64,000 bases of DNA from Candidatus Auribacterota bacterium (GTDB taxonomy: Bacteria; Auribacterota; JAFGBW01): positions 2,140 to 66,139 of the forward strand of contig JAFGBW010000039.1 of assembly GCA_016932965.1 (NCBI GenBank), in the 5' to 3' direction. Below, piece after piece: positions 32,476-43,204 of this stretch. Positions within the stretch are counted from its first letter, which is position 1. Each line of letters begins with the position of its first letter. A program made the translations under genes and the position numbers. The notes under the pieces are model-generated. The model searched no databases and was not told where the DNA came from. It saw nothing but the letters and a program-made list of their open reading frames with translations.

Positions 32476-32656
32476 TGCATGATCTCCAAAAACAAAAAGA
32501 GGAAACCTTTTATCTTATCCTCGGTATCTAGTCAACAGGAAAATTCTGTATCTATTATCGTCGGAAAAAGGCTTCAGATTTCCGAATGATTTATCCATGG
32601 CGGATGAACAAGAGACGCTGGATTTCGCGCCCCGTTTTCAGGCCTTATCCAAGTTC

Positions 32657-33526
32657 TCAGGAGCTGGAAGAGTGTTTGAAATTTCTTCGTTCTTCTGAAA
32701 CACGCGATAAAAAGCGCTGGATCGCCGCAGGATTTTTCCCGGAAAGCAATTGCCGGAAGACTCGGAACTGTTTTTCAAAAACAGCCGTGGTTTTGAGGAT
32801 TTCCCGGCGGTTTTCCTGGAAAATGCCTGTCCATAGTTCGGCGGAGCTGGCCGCGATTCGCGTCATGTCTTTGAAAGAGCCTGCGGCGATATTCAGGAGA
32901 TCCGGCAGCCGGTTTTTTTGTTTTAAAAGGGAGTCCATGAGAACAAAAGACACGACGTGCGGGAGATGTGAGATCCATGCGACGGAAGTGTCGTGTCCTT
33001 CAGGAGTCATGATGAAGACCTTGGCCCCGAGTTGTTTCCAGAATTTTTCAGCCCTTGGCAATGCCCAATCCGGGGTGTTTTTTTCCGGGGTCAGGATACA
33101 CGGGGCCCCCCGATAAAGACCTGGTACAAAATTATTAAAACCAAATTTTTCCGTTCCTGTCATAGGATGGCAACCCAGGAAACCCGCCTGCTTTCCCACA
33201 ATGCGGCTGCATGCCGAAACCACGGGTTTTTTGACACTCCCCACGTCCATGACCAGTGACCGGGACGAGAGGAAAGGCAGGATTTTTTTTAACAGTTGAG
33301 GGATGAGACTGACCGGAGTGCACAGGATCACGATTTCCGCGTCTTTTACAGCCTTCTCAATGCAACGGGTGGCAACATGCGCCAGTTTCAACCGGATCAA
33401 ATCGGGTATGACTTCCTCCCGTCTCACCAGGCCGCAGACTTCTTTTGCCAGTTTATAACGGATGAGGGTGTGCCCCAGGGAGGCCCCCATGACGCCCATG
33501 CCGCATATCGTAACTTTATTGAACAT
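32657..33526 (-). CDS. tyrA: Prephenate/arogenate dehydrogenase
   Basis: VTICGMGVMGASLGHTL is a Rossmann GxGxxG. PDH-like C-terminal dimerisation region. Start taken at MFNKV. Confidence 0.75.
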   Translation of the reverse strand: MFNKVTICGMGVMGASLGHTLIRYKLAKEVCGLVRREEVIPDLIRLKLAHVATRCIEKAVKDAEIVILCTPVSLIPQLLKKILPFLSSRSLVMDVGSVKKPVVSACSRIVGKQAGFLGCHPMTGTEKFGFNNFVPGLYRGAPCILTPEKNTPDWALPRAEKFWKQLGAKVFIMTPEGHDTSVAWISHLPHVVSFVLMDSLLKQKNRLPDLLNIAAGSFKDMTRIAASSAELWTGIFQENRREILKTTAVFEKQFRVFRQLLSGKNPAAIQRFLSRVSEERRNFKHSSSS

Positions 33527-33652
33527 TTTGATTTTTTCTTTTAGATTTGATTTTTGCATGAAAAATGGTCAATTGGCGATAGAAATTTTTAACTTTTATT
33601 TTTTAGCATAATGTCTTAAATATGTCCGGAACAAAATAGATAGGGAAGACGC

Positions 33653-34684
33653 ATGATCATAGGTTTGACAGGCCGTAACGGTTCAGGAAAAAGTACGGTG
33701 GCTGAATTTTTGATTCATCGGGGTTTTCAATATTATTCATTATCGGATATCATCAGGGAAATCCTTTCAAAAGAAGGAAAGGAATTTTCCCGGGAGAATC
33801 TGATTGAAACCGGTAACAGTCTTCGTTCCACCATGGGGGCGGCCGTTCTTGCGGAGAAGACGGTTGAAAAACTGATGCCGGATCGAAATTATGTCATTGA
33901 TTCCATCCGGAATCCGTCAGAAGTGGAGCGGCTGAGAAAGGTAAAAGGTTTTAAACTCATCAGGGTGGAAGCTCCCACCCGGGTACGGTTTGAACGCTGT
34001 AAATCACGCAACCGAGAGAAGGCGGATCAAGATCTGGACTCTTTCAAAAAGCTCGAGAAGAAGGAGCTGAAAAGTCCTGATCCTGTTTCCCAGCAGCTGG
34101 AGAAGACCGGAAAAATGGCGGATTATATCCTGAGAAACAGCGGTTCGCTGGAGACTCTTCATGAGCAGGTAATCGAAATCTTGAAAGAGGTGACAAAAAA
34201 AATTTTCAGGCCGGGCTGGGACGAGTATTTCATGAATATCGCGAGAGTGGTGGCCCAGCGTTCCAATTGTGTGAAAAGGCATGTGGCTGCGGTCATCGTT
34301 CGTGATAACCGGATCATATCTACGGGCTACAACGGCACTCCCAGAGGGATCAAAAACTGCAATGAGGGAGGATGTCCCCGGTGCAACAGTTTCGGGGTAT
34401 CGGGGGAAAATCTGGGAGAATGCCTCTGTTCCCATGCGGAGGAAAATGCCATCACACAGGCAGCTTATCATGGGGTGTCCATCAGGGATGCAACATTATA
34501 TACTACCTTTTCACCCTGTCTCATATGCACTAAAATGATCATCAATTCCGGTATTCGGGAAGTGGTCTATGACTCCCGTTATTCCTTGAATGCCCTGGAG
34601 CTTCAGCTTTTGAAAGAAGCGGGGATATCCGTCAGAGCGCTCAGAGAGCATCGGGATTTCCCCGATCCGTCTGCCGGCAGATGA
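33653..34684 (+). CDS. Fusion protein: N-terminal P-loop nucleotide-kinase-like domain + C-terminal dCMP/dCTP deaminase (zinc) domain (AvcD/DcdV-like architecture)
   Basis: Walker A GLTGRNGSGKST (nt ~33662-33697). Walker B-like NYVIDSIRN. Deaminase zinc motifs CSHAEENAI -X24- PCLICTKMI (nt ~34420-34540), matching the (H/C)AE-X24-36-PC-X2-C dCMP deaminase signature. Confidence 0.7.
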   Translation: MIIGLTGRNGSGKSTVAEFLIHRGFQYYSLSDIIREILSKEGKEFSRENLIETGNSLRSTMGAAVLAEKTVEKLMPDRNYVIDSIRNPSEVERLRKVKGFKLIRVEAPTRVRFERCKSRNREKADQDLDSFKKLEKKELKSPDPVSQQLEKTGKMADYILRNSGSLETLHEQVIEILKEVTKKIFRPGWDEYFMNIARVVAQRSNCVKRHVAAVIVRDNRIISTGYNGTPRGIKNCNEGGCPRCNSFGVSGENLGECLCSHAEENAITQAAYHGVSIRDATLYTTFSPCLICTKMIINSGIREVVYDSRYSLNALELQLLKEAGISVRALREHRDFPDPSAGR

Positions 34685-34687
34685 ACG

Positions 34688-36733
34688 ATGATGAATCCTG
34701 ATTCTTTTGTTTCATTGATTGAAAAAGGGGAAATCTTCATACAGGATGGTTTCCTGCAGGAATTTCTTTCGTTGACCAGGGAACATCAGGTCTTATTTTT
34801 AAGGGAATTGATTCGTATTTCGGAACGAGACATCATCCCGGGCAGTTTCAGGACCTACGATTTGAGGATTGAAGCAGCCCGTCTTCCCAATCATGTCGTT
34901 TTTTATCTGGGGTTAAAAGCAGGGCCGATATTTAGAGAGATGACTCTGGGTCCGGACGGAAGATCGCTCATGATCGGAGTAGGCAGAGCGTTTGAAAAGG
35001 CCAGGCCTGGAAGTCATCGGATTCAACGCTGCTATATGAACGCATTGGCCCTGACCGGAGCCCGGGTCGTGGACCTGGGGGTCACAACCACCCCGGATAT
35101 TTATTTCGGACTCGCGTACCTGCTTCATCAGGGGCTCCACGTGGCGGTCAACGTGTCGGCCAGCCATAATCCGAAAAAAGACACCGGACTGAAACATTGT
35201 ATCCGGGACAGGGAAGGGTTCATTTACTCCATTTCCTCTGATCAGATGTCCCGGCTCAAAAATCATGTTCTGCCCGGGAAAAAAGAAAAAATACAGAGTG
35301 ATGCCTTTCTTTTAGACACGGATTTTCATTCGCTGGAAGTTTTTTCCGTTGATCATCAGATGCTTCCTGATGAAAATACCCTGAGCCGGTTTCATCATGC
35401 TTTCATTGTCGCCTTCGGACTCCTGGGGAAAAAAGCCATGAATGAAATGACCGTCCGTTATCAGGGTGATTTTTACCGGGTTCTTTCTTCACTGATTCCC
35501 CCGGAAAAACCGGATCAGTTGATCCCCGGATTGTTGAAATGGTTTGAAAAGCCGTCCGGGGAAATTCGGAAATGGCTGGAGTTGTCTCCGGATGTTTCTT
35601 TTCCCGGTGCCTGCGGGGAGAAGCCGTTGAAGGACATGGTTGTGGTTTTAGATCACGGCAGGGGGACGGCTTTCAGAACCATGGAAATTTATTCTGTGCT
35701 GGGCGCCCATGTCATCTGCGTGGATGAGGAAAGGGGGTATAATCCGTTGGAGTCGGGAAACCAGATGCACTGGAGAAAAGCGGTTCTGAAAGCTGCCGGA
35801 GATTTTCCCGGCAGGGAAGTCATCGGCCTGGCCCATGATGAAGATGGAGACCGTCTCGCGGTCATGCGTTCTGACGGGATCAACGTGGAAGGAGACCGGC
35901 TGCTCGTCATTTCCTGCAGGCAGATGGAACCCTCGGAAAAAAAACCGATTGTGATCACAGAAGTCAAATCGAGACCCGAGACAAGGAAGGCCCTGGAGGA
36001 TTCCGGCGTCGTTCCTGTGATTGCACCGACAGGGTTCGCCTTCATCAAAGAGACGGCCATTATACTGGAGAAGAAATTCAGGGAATTCCATGCCTGTTCG
36101 GAAAGCCCGGCGATCCTGAGACTTCACGGAAAGGAAATCAACCTGACAACAAACCTGCCTGTGCAGATGTGGGCGGAACTCAGCGGGCATTTCGGATTGA
36201 GCCAGGGATTGTCCTGGTTTTTTGATGATGCAACCCTCATGGCTGTGGATCTGCTTTTGGGTCTTGAAAAAAAAATTCAATCCGGAACCAGGCCCGGACG
36301 GGCGCTCATTTCTCTGGATGAAAGTTTTCCAAGGCATCCGAGTTCAGGTGAATTGAATATATTTCTCCGGACAACAGATCCGGAGTATGTTCCGACTTCC
36401 GAAGAAAAAGAGGCGTTTGTAGCCTTGTTTGCAGAACTTTTTTCCGCTGATCCGGCAGTGGATCATCTTGATCGTACGGATGGGGTTCAGATTTTTTTTA
36501 AAGACAGTCAGGGGGAATACGGCGGATGGATTCTGATTAGAAAATCCAACAATGAGGACAAGCTGGTTGTGGTGTCGTCAGCCCCCACAAAAGAACAACT
36601 GCATCATGTGGAACAATGCTTTCTGGAAAAAGCGCGTGCTCTTTCTCTTTCTCCTATTTCCGGGCTTGTGCTGACCCAAGAAGAAGAACAGGGAACAACC
36701 CGGAAAGCGGAACCGTATTTTTTGAATCGCTAA
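34688..36733 (+). CDS. alpha-D-phosphohexomutase superfamily protein (PGM/PMM-like, divergent, ~90-aa N-terminal extension)
   Basis: Active-site loop VNVSASHNPKKDTGLK (TASHNP-type phosphoserine), GVTTTPDIYF, Mg loop LAHDEDGDRLAV (DxDxDR). The start codon is 4 bp after the stop of the kinase-deaminase gene. Confidence 0.65.
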   Translation: MMNPDSFVSLIEKGEIFIQDGFLQEFLSLTREHQVLFLRELIRISERDIIPGSFRTYDLRIEAARLPNHVVFYLGLKAGPIFREMTLGPDGRSLMIGVGRAFEKARPGSHRIQRCYMNALALTGARVVDLGVTTTPDIYFGLAYLLHQGLHVAVNVSASHNPKKDTGLKHCIRDREGFIYSISSDQMSRLKNHVLPGKKEKIQSDAFLLDTDFHSLEVFSVDHQMLPDENTLSRFHHAFIVAFGLLGKKAMNEMTVRYQGDFYRVLSSLIPPEKPDQLIPGLLKWFEKPSGEIRKWLELSPDVSFPGACGEKPLKDMVVVLDHGRGTAFRTMEIYSVLGAHVICVDEERGYNPLESGNQMHWRKAVLKAAGDFPGREVIGLAHDEDGDRLAVMRSDGINVEGDRLLVISCRQMEPSEKKPIVITEVKSRPETRKALEDSGVVPVIAPTGFAFIKETAIILEKKFREFHACSESPAILRLHGKEINLTTNLPVQMWAELSGHFGLSQGLSWFFDDATLMAVDLLLGLEKKIQSGTRPGRALISLDESFPRHPSSGELNIFLRTTDPEYVPTSEEKEAFVALFAELFSADPAVDHLDRTDGVQIFFKDSQGEYGGWILIRKSNNEDKLVVVSSAPTKEQLHHVEQCFLEKARALSLSPISGLVLTQEEEQGTTRKAEPYFLNR

Positions 36734-37081: not shown

Positions 37082-37135
37082 CTATTTCTAACATAATGAA
37101 ATGAGTTTTTTGCAATAAGAGATTTGGAGGAAACA

Positions 37136-37885
37136 ATGACAAGGATCATGACAATTGGCAGTCGGGCAATCCGTGAAAGGGGACAATATTTTCATAATGA
37201 TGAAAATGAATTATCCAGGCCGGTCGCGCAATCAGCAGGCTCTCAACAAGACTCAGTGACAGGCGGCGGTGAGTCCATTGCTGAAAAAAAATCGTTTAGT
37301 CATCAGGAATTGATGGCCAAACAGGCTGAAGTAAGAAAAGAACTCATTAAGACCATGTTCAGGAAATATCAGGAATACCGGACCCTGCAGAAAGTGGCTT
37401 CTGATTATGGGTACACCCGTGAGCGTATCCGTCAGTATTTTGCCATAGGAAATAAACTGGGGATCATTGATTACAAGCCTTTCAACCGGCAGAACTTTCA
37501 GAGAATAAAAAATGAACTGACCAAGGATCGCCTGATCAAATATTTGAATGAAATGGGGACAATCCGCCGTATTTCCGAGGAATTGAATGTGGCAGTCAGT
37601 CATGTGAATCGCCTGATCAAATTATATAAATTGAATCTGTCCCAATTCAGGAGGAATTACCTCAAAACCGAAATATGCAAACAGTATTACACCATGGTGG
37701 AACAGCTGGGAGGCAAGCACCCATCCACTTACGATCTCTTGCTCATTAAAAACGGCCGGAATCTCTGGGCAAAAATTTCAAGGAATTGGGGAACCGTAAA
37801 AAAATTCCGGGAAGAGCAGCATATCCAGCTGGCAAGAAAATCAAGAAGAAGAAGAAAGAACAAGAATCTTCCTCCGGCTCAATGA
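37136..37885 (+). CDS. Twin helix-turn-helix protein with two sigma-70 region-4-like modules; putative transcriptional regulator
   Basis: RTLQKVASDYGYTRERIRQYFAIGNKL contains the sigma region 4.2 TRERIRQ hallmark. A second HTH is GTIRRISEELNVAVSHVNRLIKLYKL. Basic C-terminal tail. AT-rich gene. Start taken at the ATG after GGAGGA; the ORF track gives 37124. Confidence 0.5.
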   Translation: MTRIMTIGSRAIRERGQYFHNDENELSRPVAQSAGSQQDSVTGGGESIAEKKSFSHQELMAKQAEVRKELIKTMFRKYQEYRTLQKVASDYGYTRERIRQYFAIGNKLGIIDYKPFNRQNFQRIKNELTKDRLIKYLNEMGTIRRISEELNVAVSHVNRLIKLYKLNLSQFRRNYLKTEICKQYYTMVEQLGGKHPSTYDLLLIKNGRNLWAKISRNWGTVKKFREEQHIQLARKSRRRRKNKNLPPAQ

Positions 37886-38161: not shown

Positions 38162-41100
38162 ATGATAGGTCACAAGAATTTTTTTATTTGCATGATTGCC
38201 TGGTTTTTATCGACCGGATTTTTATGCCAACCGGTTCAATGTTTTTCGCAATCTGTGGATTCTTCTTTTCTGGCTCCTTCGCATTCAGCCCAAGACCTGA
38301 CCCCCATCATGGTATTAGCCGGAAAAATGCAGGGAAATCAGCCTGTTATCTGGGATGTTTCTGCAACAGGAGTGAATAAAAAAGTAATCATTGTTGTTAA
38401 GAGCAGAGAGAGAGTGCATGTTCACTGGGGTAAAAGCCGCTACGGGAATTGGGAAATTCCCCCGGAAGCCATTTGGCCGGATCACACAACAAAGATGGAT
38501 GATAAGGCGGTGCAAACAGCCTTACAGCCTGTTTCGGATAATATCCGGGTTTTTTCAGTCACTATTCCCAACTCCATGGAATTCAATGAACTGGAATTTG
38601 TGCTTTTCTATCCTGACCGTCCCCCTCACAATCAGTGGGTTAAAGACGGAAACAGGAATTATAAAATTACCGTTAAGGACGATCCTGGACTGGAAGAAAT
38701 GGCTGGTGAAACCAAGAGTTGGATTCACACCATGATAGAAGGTGAAAGAGGGGAGCATGGCCGGAGTCTGATGCATAGAAATAAATTTGTTTGCGAATTG
38801 CTTGGCAGATTTCCTCATTGCAAAGAATTTTTCAGCACCCTGGCAGTGTACATGAGATACAACCGGCTTGGAGTCCTGCCGTGGCAGAGAGGTTATAATA
38901 CGACGCCAAGAGAAATGACTGCGAGCGTTGACAGATTGAATGAGACTATTTCAAGATTGATGATCACGGATTCTAAACATTATTCGATGGTCAGATTATT
39001 GATGAGTTTTTTAACCCTTGGCGGAGAAAATGGACAGCAAATCCGCGATAATATTTTGCATATTTTACAGAATAACGGGGTCCGGGGGACTACTTTTCTG
39101 GAACAATGGCACCAGAAATTACACAACAATGCCACCCCTGATGATATTGGAATCTGTGATGCTTATCTGGCTTTTTTAAGAAGTAATGGAGATAAAGGTA
39201 CATTTTATCGGGTCTTATGGGAGGGGTATGGAATTTCCAGGGAAAAACTGGCAAGTTATGAGAGACCCATTACGGTTGAGCCTGAGTTTTACGGATATGC
39301 CAAAGATGGTTTGATCCGTGATTTTGAAGCTTATCTGGAGCTCAACAGGAAAGTCCATTCCAGGGGTGATTTATTCCGGGCAAAAGCAAATGCTGAAAAA
39401 TATGATGCGCCAGGATTGAATAAGCCGCTGTGGGATTTTTTTACTTTGAAATATCAGGTGGAGACCTCACAGGTGGAGCAAGGCTGGGTTAAATTATTGG
39501 ACAAGCTGGTTGAAGTGCGGAGAGAGCTGCGGAGACTCATTTTTGCGGGAGGCGACTGGTGGTATCTGAGGGATTTAGTATTTTTGGATTTAAGTCTGGA
39601 AGAATATTCCAGGACCATTTCTGACAAAATCTCAGAACAAGTTAACGACCAGGAAATCATGTGGGAAGCAGCTAGGAATTTAAGCCTTCAACTTGAAAAT
39701 ATTGTACTCAGTTCTGATGCAGACGATTGGGATATGCTGGAAATCAATATCATAAAAAGAGAATGGGACAAGATTCAACAAGAGCCGATTAAAGACGAAC
39801 AATGGCATTTGCATTCCAAAGCTATTCTGGACCGTTTGCAGAGAGTCATTGGAGACCGTATTCAAAAGGAGACTGAACTGCTTCAGCCCAAGGCTGAACT
39901 ATTAGGAAACCAGGTCCTTGCAGAAAAAGACAAATGGGCCATTCCTCTTTTTAGCGAAGAACTGGTCCGGGGTTCCCCTCTATTTTCTATAGCCAATATT
40001 TTGAAACCCCTGCGCAAGGCAGCCAGACAAAAAGCTCTCTTGCCTCCCTGGGATGTCATTGTGCCTGGCAGAGTTTCTGCAGAAGTGAGGAAAGCAAAAT
40101 CATTGAAAGAAATTTTGGCAGGAATACAACCGGGAGACAGGATCATTGCTGTTGTCAAAGACCTGGATGGAAGCGAAGACATTCCTCCCCAGATAGCAGG
40201 GATTATCAGCCAAAGGGAAGTGGATATCACATCGCATCTGGCTGTCAGGGCAAGGAATTTAAAAGTTCCCTTTGTTTTCATTGATTCGGAAGAAGAATTT
40301 CAGACCGTTTATCAAAATGACCGTCCTGTCAAACTTCATGTTTTTGAAGGCATGACAAAACCCTGGCAGGTTTATACAGGGGATTTAAGCATGGTCAGTA
40401 TCCCTGCCGAAATTCCTGAAATCACCATCCCTTCTGTTGATCTGACAGCAGAACCTGCCTGTCTAAAAATACAGGAATTCACAATGGATAAGGTCGGGCC
40501 AAAAGGTTCCCAGATAAAGCAATTGATGGAAGACGTGAGTGAGAAGAAAGACGTGACAATTCCTAATTCAGTTGATGTGCCGTATGGAGTTTATCAGGCA
40601 GTGCTTAAAGATAAAAACAATTTAGAAATAGCACAACAAATACAAGAGTTAATTGCAAGAGCGGACGCTGAAACTGCAAGAGATGCCGCCAAGCAGTATA
40701 TTGCGGAGATAGAGAGATTGACTAAAACATTAGTGATACCTGATGAGATTTTAAAGCCTATTTTAGATGCGATAAAACAAGAGATAGGAGAGGATAAAAT
40801 TCTGATGGTGCGTTCTTCAGCTAACGGGGAGGATCTGGAAAAATACGCCGGCGCAGGTTTATATGAATCTTATTTTAATGTTTCATTGGATAAGGTGGAG
40901 CAACATATCAAATGGGTGTGGGCTTCCAAATGGACGGAACGCGCGTACTGGAGCAGGCGCGATATGAAAATTGACCATGACCAGATCCATGTTTCAGCGC
41001 TTATTCAGGAATGTTTTCATTTTGATTATTCCTTTGTGATTCATACGGTCAATCCGGTTAACAATGATCCGGATGAAGTCATGATTGAGGTTGCCCAGGG

Positions 41101-41512
41101 GCTGGGGGAAGCCATCGTTGCCAATTATCCGGGGAGCGCCTATCGTTTCATTTATAATAAAAAAACACATGAAGTCAGGCGCATCGCCTTTGCCAGTAAA
41201 AGTCTGAAATGCATTATCAAAGACGGCCAACTGCAATTGGTTTCAGTTGACTACAGCGATGATTTCCTGGCAGGACCAAAAGAGCAATGGGAGGAAGTGA
41301 TAAGGTCTATCGGTGAAGCAGGATGTTTGATTGAAGAAAAAAGGGGAGGGAATGCCCAGGATATCGAAGGAGGGTATTTTTCCAGGTATGCAGACAAGCC
41401 GGATATCCTGGGTTTGGTCCAGACGAGGGACCAGATGATTGTAGAGATTGTAACGGAGAAGCCTGTTGGACCAGCGGCGGAACCACCGGACGCAGTTTTG
41501 ACTGCGGCATGA
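38162..41512 (+). CDS. alpha-glucan,water dikinase (GWD)-like protein: N-terminal hydrophobic export/anchor segment, CBM-like domain, large unknown middle region, phosphohistidine domain, C-terminal PEP-synthase/PPDK-type nucleotide-binding domain
   Basis: The His-domain motif DITSHLAVRARNLKVPFVF (nt ~40222-40280) resembles the plant GWD catalytic-His motif SHVSVRARN. The nucleotide-binding domain shows MVRSSANGEDLEKYAGAGLYESYFNV, VWASKWTERAYWSRRDMKIDHDQIHVSALIQE and VAQGLGEAIV (PPDK_N-like, nt ~40500-41330). The His domain precedes the ATP domain, as in GWD and unlike PEP synthase. Confidence 0.75.
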   Translation: MIGHKNFFICMIAWFLSTGFLCQPVQCFSQSVDSSFLAPSHSAQDLTPIMVLAGKMQGNQPVIWDVSATGVNKKVIIVVKSRERVHVHWGKSRYGNWEIPPEAIWPDHTTKMDDKAVQTALQPVSDNIRVFSVTIPNSMEFNELEFVLFYPDRPPHNQWVKDGNRNYKITVKDDPGLEEMAGETKSWIHTMIEGERGEHGRSLMHRNKFVCELLGRFPHCKEFFSTLAVYMRYNRLGVLPWQRGYNTTPREMTASVDRLNETISRLMITDSKHYSMVRLLMSFLTLGGENGQQIRDNILHILQNNGVRGTTFLEQWHQKLHNNATPDDIGICDAYLAFLRSNGDKGTFYRVLWEGYGISREKLASYERPITVEPEFYGYAKDGLIRDFEAYLELNRKVHSRGDLFRAKANAEKYDAPGLNKPLWDFFTLKYQVETSQVEQGWVKLLDKLVEVRRELRRLIFAGGDWWYLRDLVFLDLSLEEYSRTISDKISEQVNDQEIMWEAARNLSLQLENIVLSSDADDWDMLEINIIKREWDKIQQEPIKDEQWHLHSKAILDRLQRVIGDRIQKETELLQPKAELLGNQVLAEKDKWAIPLFSEELVRGSPLFSIANILKPLRKAARQKALLPPWDVIVPGRVSAEVRKAKSLKEILAGIQPGDRIIAVVKDLDGSEDIPPQIAGIISQREVDITSHLAVRARNLKVPFVFIDSEEEFQTVYQNDRPVKLHVFEGMTKPWQVYTGDLSMVSIPAEIPEITIPSVDLTAEPACLKIQEFTMDKVGPKGSQIKQLMEDVSEKKDVTIPNSVDVPYGVYQAVLKDKNNLEIAQQIQELIARADAETARDAAKQYIAEIERLTKTLVIPDEILKPILDAIKQEIGEDKILMVRSSANGEDLEKYAGAGLYESYFNVSLDKVEQHIKWVWASKWTERAYWSRRDMKIDHDQIHVSALIQECFHFDYSFVIHTVNPVNNDPDEVMIEVAQGLGEAIVANYPGSAYRFIYNKKTHEVRRIAFASKSLKCIIKDGQLQLVSVDYSDDFLAGPKEQWEEVIRSIGEAGCLIEEKRGGNAQDIEGGYFSRYADKPDILGLVQTRDQMIVEIVTEKPVGPAAEPPDAVLTAA

Positions 41513-41524
41513 TGAGAATGTGTC

Positions 41525-43204
41525 ATGGATAATAGCAAACCAATTCAGAAACGATTGAATCTCCCGGTTTTTCTTTTAGGAAAAGCTGGAAGAATCAGGG
41601 GTCAATCAATTTTTTTAATCCTATCCGGTTTCATCAGCAGTCTTCTTATTTTTTTCCATACACCGGCGTTTGCTGACCTCTGTTTATTCTGTCTTGCCCC
41701 ACAAGAGCAGACTTCAAGAGAAATGGCGGTTTTTACTTCCATTTCGAAAGAGCTGAACAGGGAAGGGCAAGTGGCTTTCAGAAGCATTCAAAGACCAGGC
41801 GAGGTCGATCTGATTGCTGCGGTGAAGTCAAGTGAGCCCGTCTATCTCCACTGGGGAGTTTCCCGTTTCGGGAAATGGGAGATGCCGCCTGAAGACATCC
41901 GGCCTTTGGATTCAATACCTAATCAAAAAGGGACATCTCTTCAAACCCGGATGCAGTCTTTATCGGGTGATATCCGGTTTGTAAAAATAACTGTGCCTGA
42001 ACATGTTGATTGCAGCGAAATCGCTTTTGTTTTTTATTATCCGGAACGGGCGAAGGAGCAACAGTGGGTTAAAGACGGAGACAAGGACTATTATCTGGCA
42101 GATATTCACACATTCCCGGAATTAATTAGCTGCAATGAACAGACAAGGACCCTGGAATTCAACAAACATGAACTGAAAAAATGGATCATTGGATTGATTG
42201 AAAGAGGACTTCTTCCCATGCTGTTTTTTGATTTTGATGATACGTTGAATCTGGGGTATGGCGGATATATGCCTGACGAATCCATTGGGGCTTTGGATCA
42301 GCTTGTCAATGCCGGCGGGATCATTGCCATTCATTCAGGGATAGATTTATTATGGGGAAGCCAGAAAATTCTCCGTTTGACGCAATCCAGATTTCCGTTT
42401 CATTTTCTGGTCTTGAGCACGGGTAAAGATATTTTTGCCTGGAGTCATCAGCATAAGGCCTATTTAAAACTTCCATTCTCAGGAGACAATAAGAGCGATG
42501 CTTTAATGAAACTGGCCTCTTTTTTAGGAATTCTGCCTCATCAAATGGGGTATTGCTGTGATTTTCCCGGAAGCGGTGATAAACAGGACGGGATTGATGA
42601 TCCGACATTATCTTCAAACATCGGTTTCATAGCCAATGTAAGTCCGTTTGGAAGAATGATGAAACTTCCCGCTGAATCTTCAACCAGACTGATTCAGCCT
42701 GATGATAACCCTTTGACAAGGCAGGCTAAAGGCGCCTGTAATTACATGGCTGCGGCAAGCGATGTGTTGCGACAATATGGTCAAACACCGAATCAAGCCA
42801 TCAGTGATATCAACACCAAGTTACTGGCCGCTGGTTTTAAACTGCCGGTCCTGGAACCCCGTGTGGATCAATATACTGTCTGGACCAAGGACAATCAGGT
42901 GTCAGCTATCCCTGAAGGACATGTTCTGCGTGTTGAGACTGACAAACCCGGAATGGTCTATGCCGGAAAAGAAGGAATCAGCGGCTGGGAACGAACGTAC
43001 GCTATTCCCCTAAGATTAGAAAGCGGTAAATGGATAGCTGATATTTTAGACCCTGAAGTCAATACCTTTACTTTTATCGAGAACGATCCTCTTGATGAAA
43101 AAAAGGTCGGGTGGCTAGGAAAAAAAGGCGCAAATTATTATTTTTCCAGATACGCTGTTCCATCCGGGACGTCTCATGGGTCCCAAGCTTCGTTTTCAGC
43201 CTGA
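41525..43204 (+). CDS. CBM-like domain + HAD-superfamily phosphatase-like protein with N-terminal signal peptide
   Basis: The N-terminal hydrophobic segment ends in AFA|DL (AxA signal-peptidase site). Residues ~93-195 are about 45% identical to residues ~74-175 of the preceding dikinase (LHWGVSRFGKWEMPPEDI...QWVKDGDKDY vs VHWGKSRYGNWEIPPEAI...QWVKDGNRNY). The HAD motif I FFDFDDTL is at nt ~42225-42245. Confidence 0.6.
   Translation: MDNSKPIQKRLNLPVFLLGKAGRIRGQSIFLILSGFISSLLIFFHTPAFADLCLFCLAPQEQTSREMAVFTSISKELNREGQVAFRSIQRPGEVDLIAAVKSSEPVYLHWGVSRFGKWEMPPEDIRPLDSIPNQKGTSLQTRMQSLSGDIRFVKITVPEHVDCSEIAFVFYYPERAKEQQWVKDGDKDYYLADIHTFPELISCNEQTRTLEFNKHELKKWIIGLIERGLLPMLFFDFDDTLNLGYGGYMPDESIGALDQLVNAGGIIAIHSGIDLLWGSQKILRLTQSRFPFHFLVLSTGKDIFAWSHQHKAYLKLPFSGDNKSDALMKLASFLGILPHQMGYCCDFPGSGDKQDGIDDPTLSSNIGFIANVSPFGRMMKLPAESSTRLIQPDDNPLTRQAKGACNYMAAASDVLRQYGQTPNQAISDINTKLLAAGFKLPVLEPRVDQYTVWTKDNQVSAIPEGHVLRVETDKPGMVYAGKEGISGWERTYAIPLRLESGKWIADILDPEVNTFTFIENDPLDEKKVGWLGKKGANYYFSRYAVPSGTSHGSQASFSA

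Follow-up and report, generated by a model that had tools for sequence, protein, structure and literature searches.

Anti-phage deaminases of the AvcD/DcdV type (Tal et al. 2022, Hsueh et al. 2022) consist of a P-loop kinase-like (PLK) domain followed by a zinc-dependent deaminase of the dCMP type, and both domains of AvcD are needed for dC depletion. These systems are mobile and sporadic, and are paired with AvcI, an RNA of 152-174 nt that lies directly 5' of AvcD on the same strand and is co-transcribed with it. Family limits for defensive deaminases were placed by Tal et al. 2022 at a size of >350 aa and a defence score of >0.33. The same two-domain order is found in fungal dCMP deaminases of the Dcd1 type, examples being those of Elasticomyces (KAK5709870.1) and Blyttiomyces (KAJ3330337.1). 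We take DCD1 of S. cerevisiae, N-domain included, to be one of these two-domain proteins. Fungal Dcd1 is a housekeeping enzyme which supplies about 40% of dUMP (PMC7145683).

At positions 33653..34684 (+ strand) of the window, ie the whole 64,000-nucleotide stretch of DNA analysed here, a UPF0200-type kinase-like domain is joined to a dCMP deaminase domain in the order seen in AvcD/DcdV and in the fungal enzymes. The two are encoded by a single, complete open reading frame of 343 aa with an ATG start, as described in the first-pass annotation. The gene is certainly real, because a Candidatus Aureabacteria MAG has yielded an identical deposited protein, and scoring covered more than 6,300 homologues; the AF2 model of the protein has a pLDDT of 86.8 and a pTM of 0.76. 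Pfam recognises both domains (AAA_18/AAA_17 at residues 3-131, dCMP_cyt_deam_1 at residues 189-306). The two-domain layout is real, but it does not, as had been proposed, define AvcD, because fungal housekeeping dCMP deaminases share it. The flanking genes are those named from the sequence at the outset. Upstream, and divergent to the fusion gene, is a prephenate dehydrogenase gene (tyrA, 32657-33559) with PDH_N and PDH_C; downstream, a PGM/PMM-like gene (34688..36733, +) starts 3 bp past the fusion stop codon and is probably co-transcribed with it, and is regarded as context and not as a functional part. We put the probability that the fusion is a housekeeping kinase-fused dCMP deaminase, and not an AvcID-type toxin-antitoxin defence module, at approximately 0.78.

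The dCMP deaminase domain occupies residues 186-332 (34208..34648, +), as judged by dCMP_cyt_deam_1 (PF00383, 94 bits, cutoff 25), the ComEB model, Foldseek and BLASTP. Between HAE of the catalytic motif CSHAEENAI (residues 259-267, 34427..34453, +) and PC of PCLICTKMI (residues 288-296, 34514..34540, +) there are exactly 24 residues, which bears out the HAE-X24-PCxxC signature reported earlier. H261, E263, N265, P288, C289 and C292 show no variation in an alignment of 71 family members, and C206, C236, C241, C244, C257 and C259 are also invariant, as is the GYNG motif (residues 225-228, 34325..34336, +). A Cys-rich insert, CNEGGCPRC (residues 236-244, 34358..34384, +), is presumed to be where the dCMP-deaminase clade binds structural zinc. 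The marks of the dCMP deaminase/ComE clade given by Iyer et al. 2011 (PMC3239186), ie HxE and PCxxC, NxxP where strand 2 ends, 'NA' two positions beyond HxE, a zinc insert before HxE and a Cys after helix 1, are all present (H261-A-E263, N265-A266, N227-G-T-P230, P288-C289-x-x-C292, C206 and C236/C241/C244).

Foldseek supports the dCMP-deaminase fold, with TM values of 0.87 to 2hvw (S. mutans dCMP deaminase), 0.70 to 1vq2 and 0.88 to 4p9e; ComEB, T4 Cd, human DCTD, the cyanophage S-TIM5 enzyme and PBCV-1 bi-DCD have the same fold (TM 0.70-0.88). Single-domain dCMP deaminases have the catalytic and structural zinc motifs, NxxP, HxE-xNA and GYNG in common with the fusion protein but lack its N-terminal kinase-like domain. 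The ComEB equivalog model TIGR02571 gave 115.7 bits, against a cutoff of 219.45, over model positions 4-139 of 151; by this score the domain is related to Firmicutes ComEB without being its equivalog. The BLASTP identities of the domain were 72%, 69% and 61% with complete dCMP deaminases of the stand-alone type, 50% with fungal dCMP deaminases, which share its zinc insert NCNEGGC.RCN and GYNGTPRG, and 27-29% with AvcDs.

From these features we infer that the C-terminal domain works as an ordinary dCMP deaminase dependent on zinc, converting dCMP to dUMP, the dTMP precursor, a step which would set the dCTP/dTTP balance. The catalytic zinc would be held by H261, C289 and C292, with E263 as the proton shuttle, and the Cys-rich insert would bind structural zinc. 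Regulated dCMP deaminases with a G(Y/W)NG motif are activated by dCTP and inhibited by dTTP. Since GYNG is retained, the same response is probable in the fusion deaminase, as in the classical enzymes; we take GYNG to be the motif of the dCTP/dTTP allosteric site (cf. Marx & Alian 2015).

The P-loop NMP-kinase-like domain covers residues 1-185 (33653..34207, +) and was recognised by AAA_18/AAA_17, alignment with SSO1041/UPF0200 and Foldseek. Its Walker A motif, the P-loop GLTGRNGSGKST (residues 4-15, 33662..33697, +), is canonical and as intact as first read, and its G4, T6, G7, G12 and K13 do not vary among the 71 family members. Together with Walker A Lys13 the domain has S-x-S-D-x-x-R, D83-x-x-R86 and an Arg-rich LID motif, and K13, S29/S31/D32/R35, D83/R86 and R112/R115/R119/R121 are invariant in the 71 sequences. 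SSO1041 of UPF0200 (3h0k/3lw7) aligns with the domain end to end (E=8e-15; Foldseek TM 0.85), with the P-loop, SDxxR, DxxR and Arg-rich LID motifs in common. These 'AdkA-like' proteins and PRK08356 are archaeal and stand alone, with lengths of about 180-195 aa, whereas the N-domain of the fusion is joined to a deaminase. NF006226 (PRK08356) was the best full-length profile match, at 95.4 bits against a cutoff of 189, and by these comparisons UPF0200/SSO1041 is the closest known relative of the N-domain, though not its equivalog.

It had been considered in the first-pass annotation that the N-terminal domain might prove to be a plain housekeeping dephospho-CoA kinase (CoaE) or cytidylate kinase (Cmk). 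Such a domain would merely happen to be fused to ComEB. Some relatives are indeed called 'dephospho-CoA kinase' in database entries, and there are weak matches to the CoaE Pfam PF01121 (22.3 bits, cutoff 27, residues 1-46 only), TIGR00152 (30.7 bits, cutoff 65.6) and the archaeal (d)CMP kinase model TIGR02173 (23 bits, cutoff 102). However, the N-domain scored under every curated cutoff of the CoaE, Cmk, Adk, Tmk-like and dNMP kinase profiles, the CoaE and Cmk matches were largely confined to the P-loop, and the structural likeness to CoaE reached a TM of only 0.55-0.64, compared to 0.85 for SSO1041. With the best full-length profile belonging to the uncharacterised PRK08356 family (95 bits), such an identity is scarcely credible.

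The N-domain most likely binds ATP or (d)NTP, plus (d)NMP, and we infer one of two roles for it, phosphorylation of a pyrimidine deoxynucleotide where the pathway branches at dCMP, or nucleotide sensing. A truly bifunctional fusion, in which the N-domain is an active (d)NMP or deoxynucleoside kinase (eg dCMP to dCDP, dTMP to dTDP or dC to dCMP) and dCTP/dTTP flux is partitioned or channelled, would be a refinement of the housekeeping explanation. It is favoured by the invariance of every kinase-type residue in the 71 sequences and by the end-to-end alignment with SSO1041, whose crystal structure has AMP in the NMP site. There is also a split form, in which kinase-like and deaminase genes are adjacent but separate on an archaeal contig, and where the deaminase half is missing the N-domain persists by itself, with the Cpn10-X-QueA synteny unchanged, which suggests an autonomous activity. 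On the other hand, kinase activity is unreported for UPF0200 proteins, the PLK domain of AvcD and the N-terminus of fungal Dcd1, and the Cmk, Tmk-like, Adk, CoaE and dNMP kinase scores were all sub-threshold. The N-domains of the fungal, eukaryotic proteins, with a P-loop less canonical than that of the fusion protein, contain long low-complexity inserts which fit a regulatory or structural role equally well. A second catalytic activity is thus a realistic prospect, but not the one we would favour.

Homology of the fusion protein to AvcD/DcdV extends over both domains, as the first-pass annotation had recognised, and includes HAE and PCxxC; the protein scored 223 bits with PADLOC dCTPase and E=1.5e-48 with NCBIfam NF041025 (anti-phage dCTP deaminase). 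The shared architecture and this significant full-length homology would suit a bona fide anti-phage dCTP/dCMP deaminase of a compact sub-family, depleting dC upon infection and controlled by an unrecognised antitoxin, either an RNA overlapping tyrA or a protein, and archaeal and fungal two-domain proteins were counted as 'homologs' by the DcdV authors. Because both AvcD domains are needed for dC depletion, the fusion protein may, by analogy, have a similar dCTP-directed activity. The claim of AvcD/DcdV identity, however, did not survive comparison with the profiles. On NF041025, for which the curated equivalog cutoff is 400 bits, the fusion protein scored 165.8 bits, about 235 short, and with five relatives it fell in the range 141-166, compared to 421-498 for four PGAP-named AvcDs, which pass. 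Scores with PADLOC dCTPase were 197-223 bits for the short family and 532-601 for the same four AvcDs. With the ComEB model the order was the opposite: the short family scored 110-116 bits over the full length, and AvcDs 43-48 bits over part of it. At default E-values the PADLOC model would label the fusion protein 'dCTPase'.

The differences from AvcD are also evident in the protein itself. AvcDs are 499-576 aa long, compared to 343 aa for the fusion protein and a family mode of 330-340 aa, and the fusion protein falls under the >350-aa limit of Tal et al. Five AvcD-specific extensions and insertions are absent from it, among them stretches of about 40 aa at the N-terminus and about 75 aa at the C-terminus, and inserts of about 27 aa in the kinase domain and about 40 aa ahead of HAE. 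Its Walker A motif is canonical, in contrast to the non-canonical GxxGSGxK of AvcDs, and it keeps GYNG where four AvcDs have GCND, GRND, GTNE or GWND. Searches of the PDB by sequence and by Foldseek for a solved two-domain AvcD-like structure returned single-domain matches only, and a literature search on AvcD structures or the role of the PLK domain gave nothing useful.

An upstream RNA of the AvcI/DifV type, which the first-pass annotation had associated with this architecture, was not detectable by Rfam or folding in the 93-bp spacer between tyrA and the fusion gene (33560..33652), and there is too little room for one. The spacer is an AT-rich divergent intergenic region, regarded as the promoter/5'-UTR region and not as an sRNA gene. 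A scan of 32500-35500 gave no Rfam match at E<=1, and the folding of either strand of the spacer was less stable than that of shuffled sequences (z = +1.1 to +1.8), as was that of a 146-nt extension into tyrA. No terminator was found in the spacer region and no sigma-70 promoter in the spacer, the scan for both being uninformative for this phylum. As AvcI has no Rfam-detectable conservation, the case for its absence rests mainly on the short, unstructured spacer. Throughout the family the upstream gap is similarly short, with a median of 98 bp and a length below 150 bp at 48 of 67 loci. The two closest of the retrieved AvcD loci have an upstream small ORF of 171-186 nt.

More than 583 species representatives carry the fusion family, in many bacterial phyla and in DPANN archaea, among them Omnitrophota, Acidobacteriota, Elusimicrobiota, UBA10199, Bdellovibrio, Nitrospinota and Micrarchaeota. 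Sequences cluster by phylum in an NJ tree, and neighbouring genes are conserved inside a phylum but change from one phylum to the next. The order glyoxalase-like gene, fusion, ispH is kept in 16 Omnitrophota-type loci, Acidobacteriota loci have a divergent acyl-CoA dehydrogenase gene beside the fusion gene, and in the closest relatives the gene lies downstream of groES and adjoins queA/ileS. This taxonomy-congruent phylogeny and synteny point to a vertically inherited, core single-copy family, although two copies (L048, L071) occur in a single Bryobacterales MAG. The first-pass annotation had asked whether the fusion is uniformly conserved next to tyrA across the lineage; uniform adjacency was not found, the neighbours varying between phyla, but the lineage-specific conserved synteny is the behaviour of a core gene. 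Its suggestion of a distinct sub-family or a metabolic role pointed in the right direction. The family is vertically inherited and lies in housekeeping contexts. In the complete genome CP064976.1 the fusion gene is 9 bp downstream of dcd, an adjacency seen at only 2 of about 75 loci and hence not a family-wide linkage. That the fusion stands in for a missing Dcd as a general rule was rejected, dcd being directly upstream in one lineage.

The 144 neighbours at 19 loci have Pfams of core metabolism and showed no defence-gene enrichment beyond isolated generic PADLOC matches, in an approximate test that is not the Tal et al. pipeline; this context gives no support for a defence score >0.33. A restriction-modification gene was present in one of seven Pfam-annotated contexts. 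The locus of the relative P0079 has a Y1 transposase gene and a type I HsdR gene in its vicinity. Viral contigs yielded stand-alone deaminase halves only, and no fusion. The retrieved AvcD loci, in contrast, are on plasmids, adjoining IS elements or recombinases, and the fusion protein has neither the mobile, sporadic occurrence nor the RNA partner of AvcD/DcdV. Considering the scores, the missing AvcD-specific segments, the short unstructured spacer and the housekeeping synteny, an anti-phage AvcD at this locus is very unlikely.

AvcD is probably a divergent, mobile offshoot or a sister of the short fusion family. A more specific and rather speculative form of this proposal is that the short fusion represents the ancestral, housekeeping state and gave rise to the AvcD toxins, with a strictly conserved UPF0200-type N-domain that either is catalytically active as a pyrimidine (d)NMP kinase or gates the deaminase by sensing nucleotides. 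If that were true, this widespread enzyme would be an overlooked bifunctional point at which many uncultured bacterial phyla and DPANN archaea control the balance of dCTP and dTTP, and a tractable, non-toxic model for the need of AvcD for its kinase-like domain. Non-defensive AvcD relatives are now delimited, and could help to explain the conversion of a metabolic deaminase into a toxin and to probe the conserved kinase-like domain, which is uncharacterised in UPF0200, Dcd1 and AvcD alike. Above all, the family calls for caution, since in MAGs of Omnitrophota, Acidobacteriota, Elusimicrobiota, DPANN archaea and others it will be mistaken for a defence system. A PLK plus dCMP deaminase architecture, even with 223 bits on PADLOC dCTPase, is no proof of an anti-phage AvcD, because a far larger, vertically inherited housekeeping family (>580 species matches, together with the fungal Dcd1-type enzymes) shares the layout.

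Compared to the AvcDs, the fungal dCMP deaminases are, in full-length alignment, much closer relatives of the fusion protein. Residues 1-328 are collinear with residues 1-326 of the annotated Elasticomyces enzyme (P0220), at 36% identity and 190 bits, compared to approximately 26% identity and 59-84 bits for AvcDs in full-length BLASTP. The fusion protein is most likely an ordinary enzyme and a non-defensive relative of AvcD.

The fusion ORF lies exactly where the first-pass annotation had placed it, at 33653-34684 on the + strand, with an ATG start and 343 codons for amino acids. The Walker A motif, GLTGRNGSGKST, occupies residues 4-15, and Pfam matches AAA_18/AAA_17 at residues 3-131 and dCMP_cyt_deam_1 at residues 189-306 (94 bits, cutoff 25). 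The proposed deaminase motif was confirmed, with CSHAEENAI at residues 259-267, PCLICTKMI at residues 288-296 and 24 residues from HAE to PC. Both neighbours named for the gene were also seen: a divergent prephenate dehydrogenase gene, tyrA (32657-33559, PDH_N + PDH_C), separated from it by a 93-bp spacer, and a PGM/PMM-like gene encoding 681 aa (34688-36733, + strand), which begins 3 bp past the fusion stop codon. An identical protein is on deposit from a Candidatus Aureabacteria MAG, and a locus identical to this one is present in a Logan assembly.

In the 681-aa protein Pfam recognises only phosphoglucomutase/phosphomannomutase domain I (35 bits), the other ~500 residues having no match, and the protein may be a phosphohexomutase that has diverged or taken on another role. 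Further along, a 253-aa ORF (37124-37885, +) has no Pfam match at 1e-5 and a faint Sigma70_r4 signal in precomputed annotation; its product may be a divergent HTH regulator or sigma-like protein. The 1116-aa protein encoded at 38162-41512 (+) carries Ig_N_CWD1, GWD1_pHisD and PPDK_N, the full plant-type alpha-glucan water dikinase domain set, and the next gene (41525-43204, +) encodes a 559-aa protein with the Ig_N_CWD1 domain only. With the PGM-like gene these two have the look of a cluster for glucan phosphorylation, something unusual in a bacterium from this candidate phylum.

The predicted AlphaFold structure of the fusion is a confident one (pLDDT 86.8, pTM 0.76). Its modelled C-domain has TM scores of 0.70-0.88 against the dCMP deaminases of S. 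mutans, T4, human, S-TIM5 and PBCV-1. All the published signatures of the dCMP deaminase/ComE clade (HxE, PCxxC, NxxP, NA after HxE, and Cys after helix 1 plus a zinc-binding insert; PMC3239186) are present in the deaminase domain and invariant in 71 family members. The modelled N-domain scores 0.85 against SSO1041, an 'adenylate-kinase-related' UPF0200 protein crystallised with AMP, and 0.55-0.64 against CoaE; its sequence, too, aligns with that of SSO1041 over the full length (E=8e-15). Conserved in the N-domain are Walker A Lys13, S-x-S-D-x-x-R (where adenylate kinases have the Arg that binds the NMP phosphate), D83-x-x-R86 and a LID rich in Arg (R112/R115/R119/R121). A housekeeping dephospho-CoA or cytidylate kinase, the non-defence identity raised for this domain in the first-pass annotation, is not what was found: the curated models for CoaE, Cmk, Udk and Adk all score far below threshold, and these identities were rejected.

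In one archaeal contig (L093, 2248-3353, with a TFIIS/RPB9-like neighbour) the two halves are adjacent separate genes, a kinase-like gene of 183 aa and a ComEB-like dCMP deaminase of 169 aa with a gap of 44 bp, a Rosetta-stone indication of joint function. The slot between Cpn10 and QueA that holds the full fusion in one relative (L087, 7583-10105) is filled in a bacterial contig (L105, 1084-2367) by a stand-alone kinase-like gene of 182 aa, 51% identical to the N-domain. There the deaminase half was lost or never gained and the kinase-like half kept, which suggests that the N-domain has its own activity. That the module is a true (d)NMP kinase is a tentative reading, which we consider somewhat doubtful; the alternative is that it is a regulatory domain instead.

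At face value, a 223-bit match to the PADLOC 'dCTPase' model favours an AvcD/DcdV reading of the fusion. Calibration was made with four plasmid-borne genes, PGAP-named or scoring as anti-phage dCTP deaminase (Photobacterium 510 aa, E. coli 499 aa, Pseudosulfitobacter 566 aa, Pantoea 545 aa). These gave 532-601 bits with the PADLOC model and 421-498 bits with NF041025, the NCBIfam curated equivalog for anti-phage dCTP deaminase, against which the window protein scored 165.8 bits (cutoff 400); five of its relatives from different phyla gave 197-220 and 141-156 bits, respectively. The ComEB model showed the reverse trend, with 110-116 bits and near-complete model coverage in the short family (the window protein and its full-length relatives), compared to 43-48 bits and partial coverage in the AvcDs. 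BLASTP identity between the window protein and the AvcDs is 26% (59-84 bits). Joint alignment showed that the AvcDs have an N-terminal extension of ~40 aa, a ~27-aa insert within the kinase-like domain, a ~40-aa insert from the zinc insert to HAE and a C-terminal extension of ~75 aa, all absent from the window protein and the short family. Their Walker A is the non-canonical GxxGSGxK, whereas that of the window protein and the short family is the canonical GxxGxGK[S/G], and they have GCND, GRND, GTNE or GWND where the short family keeps an invariant GYNG (residues 225-228 of the window protein), which we take to be the dCTP/dTTP allosteric-site motif. With a sub-cutoff NF041025 score, low identity and none of the AvcD insertions or extensions, the AvcD/DcdV-like identity first proposed for the gene was not borne out.

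DifV/AvcI, an RNA of 152-174 nt, is encoded directly 5' of the toxin gene, in the same orientation and co-transcribed with it (10.1101/2021.03.31.437871). Of the four AvcD loci, the two most similar to the query have a small 'hypothetical protein' ORF on the AvcD strand, 35-75 bp upstream, of 171 nt in L082 (2645-2815) and 186 nt in L083 (2685-2870), at positions matching the published AvcI/DifV; they are a positive control for what the window does not have. The first-pass annotation had named the 93-bp spacer upstream of the fusion as a place to look for such an RNA, but those 93 bp have to accommodate the promoter of divergent tyrA as well. The spacer gave no Rfam match at E<=1 and contains no terminator. 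Either strand of it folds less stably than its dinucleotide shuffles (z = +1.13 and +1.28), as does a 146-nt extension into tyrA (z = +1.81). Across 67 short-family loci the median upstream gap is 98 bp (<150 bp in 48), and roughly one upstream gene in two has the orientation of the fusion and a spacing typical of operons, so that an AvcI-type partner is not a feature of the short family.

Genomic context was compared by clustering of flanking ORFs and Pfam annotation. Synteny is conserved within lineages and is lineage-specific. IspH/LytB lies immediately downstream of the fusion in 16 Omnitrophota-type loci, several of which have a glyoxalase-like gene upstream and HtpX, ferredoxin, QueD, glutaredoxin and EF-P near; in Acidobacteriota the upstream neighbour is a divergent acyl-CoA dehydrogenase gene. 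Genes for the nearest relatives of the window protein lie downstream of groES, adjoining queA, rph, ileS and lpxK, and not beside tyrA; the uniform conservation next to tyrA considered at first, as for a core gene, was not seen. In the complete 2.75-Mb genome CP064976.1 (L091, 9434-10999) a canonical Dcd dCTP deaminase gene (185 aa, PF22769) ends 9 bp before the fusion, and the same pair occurs at a second locus (L003, 7432-8999), on the same strand in both and with a gap of 9-11 bp. This adjacency, seen in that one lineage only, is a direct link to dUMP/dTTP metabolism, with two different dUMP routes encoded in one apparent operon.

PADLOC found no recurring defence system among 144 neighbours (±4 genes) of the fusion at 19 diverse loci. 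The matches were isolated and to generic models only: one Ser/Thr-kinase-like protein fits many PD-T4-6 models, and there was one each to Fic, MTase, SMC-like LmuB, MkoA, mad6 and GlgB-type 'candidates'. By Pfam the same neighbours include enolase, pyruvate kinase, glutamine synthetase, H+-PPase, LytB, QueA and others of that kind. Only one of seven Pfam-annotated contexts, that of the relative P0079, has a transposase close by, along with a restriction gene. The published limits of the defensive family are kinase plus deaminase, >350 aa and a defence score >0.33 (Tal et al., bioRxiv 10.1101/2021.04.26.441389); at 343 aa the window protein is below that size, and the short family falls outside the defence-context limit in our approximation, not reproduction, of the published pipeline. 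The window protein was rejected as an AvcD/DcdV on equivalog score, size, insertions, AvcI partner and defence-island or mobile context. One part of the original proposal that stands is homology: it is a distant homologue of AvcD/DcdV that lacks the family-specific features.

At least 583 loci were confirmed in a scan of GTDB species representatives. Carriers among the matches listed are Omnitrophota, 'Deltaproteobacteria'/UBA10199, Bdellovibrio, Acidobacteriota/Bryobacterales, Elusimicrobiota, Nitrospinota, Nitrospirales, Tectomicrobia, Gemmatimonadota, Spirochaetales and Micrarchaeota, the last with diphthamide-synthesis genes nearby in support of the archaeal assignment. Length in the short family is very uniform (~330-340 aa), with 55-68% identity to the query across phyla. 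A neighbour-joining tree, which is distance-based and crude with taxon labels from record titles, grouped the proteins by phylum and placed the AvcDs on a long separate branch; the pattern is the reverse of the patchy occurrence usual for defence genes. One Bryobacterales MAG has two fusion copies (L048 and L071, contigs CBDFIS010000006.1 and CBDFIS010000004.1), one on a 6.8-Mb contig and the other on a 55-kb contig that may be a plasmid or a binning artefact. In IMG/VR viral contigs (L094-L103) the relatives of the C-domain (up to 64% identity) are all stand-alone dCMP deaminases, and no fusion was found. Another stand-alone deaminase, P0271, is surrounded by ORFs without any Pfam match, a setting that looks phage-like.

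Complete dCMP deaminases that stand alone, 150-190 aa in length, match the C-domain by BLASTP at 72%, 69% and 61% identity. HMMER, run exhaustively on 50%-identity representatives, gave 643 clusters at E<=1e-30, in which full-length relatives (320-370 aa) form a continuum that reaches down to ~35% identity. Some of them are fungal and carry the annotation dCMP deaminase (Elasticomyces elasticus KAK5709870.1, Blyttiomyces KAJ3330337.1); these are collinear with the window protein from residue 1 to ~330 (36% identity, 190 bits) and 50% identical to it in the C-domain. We assume that S. cerevisiae DCD1 itself has this Dcd1-type domain make-up. Fungal Dcd1 is a housekeeping enzyme that provides ~40% of the dUMP pool, and when it is lost dTTP falls and dCTP rises (PMC7145683); archaeal and ascomycete proteins with 'comparable domain architectures' were remarked upon by the DcdV authors (10.1101/2021.03.31.437871). 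The two-domain layout, initially taken as defining AvcD/DcdV, is thus shared with housekeeping dCMP deaminases and is not diagnostic of AvcD. Judged by sequence, the window protein is far more closely related to the housekeeping two-domain lineage than to AvcD.

We favour, with a probability of about 0.8, a housekeeping dCMP deaminase with a fused nucleotide-binding kinase-like module. The deaminase domain would convert dCMP to dUMP, probably under regulation by dCTP and dTTP, and the module would bind nucleotide. In practice, architecture plus a permissive defence-HMM match leads to AvcD being over-called in environmental genomes. The questions raised are what the conserved UPF0200-type domain does and whether the housekeeping lineage was the source from which AvcD was recruited. 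The window protein is not an equivalog of Firmicutes ComEB (116 bits vs a cutoff of 219) or of PRK08356 (95 bits vs 189). The prokaryotic branch is abundant in databases, under names that include 'dCMP deaminase', 'deaminase' and 'AAA family ATPase', and it is with the two-domain (Dcd1-type) dCMP deaminases, which it would resemble in its working, that the window protein is best filed.
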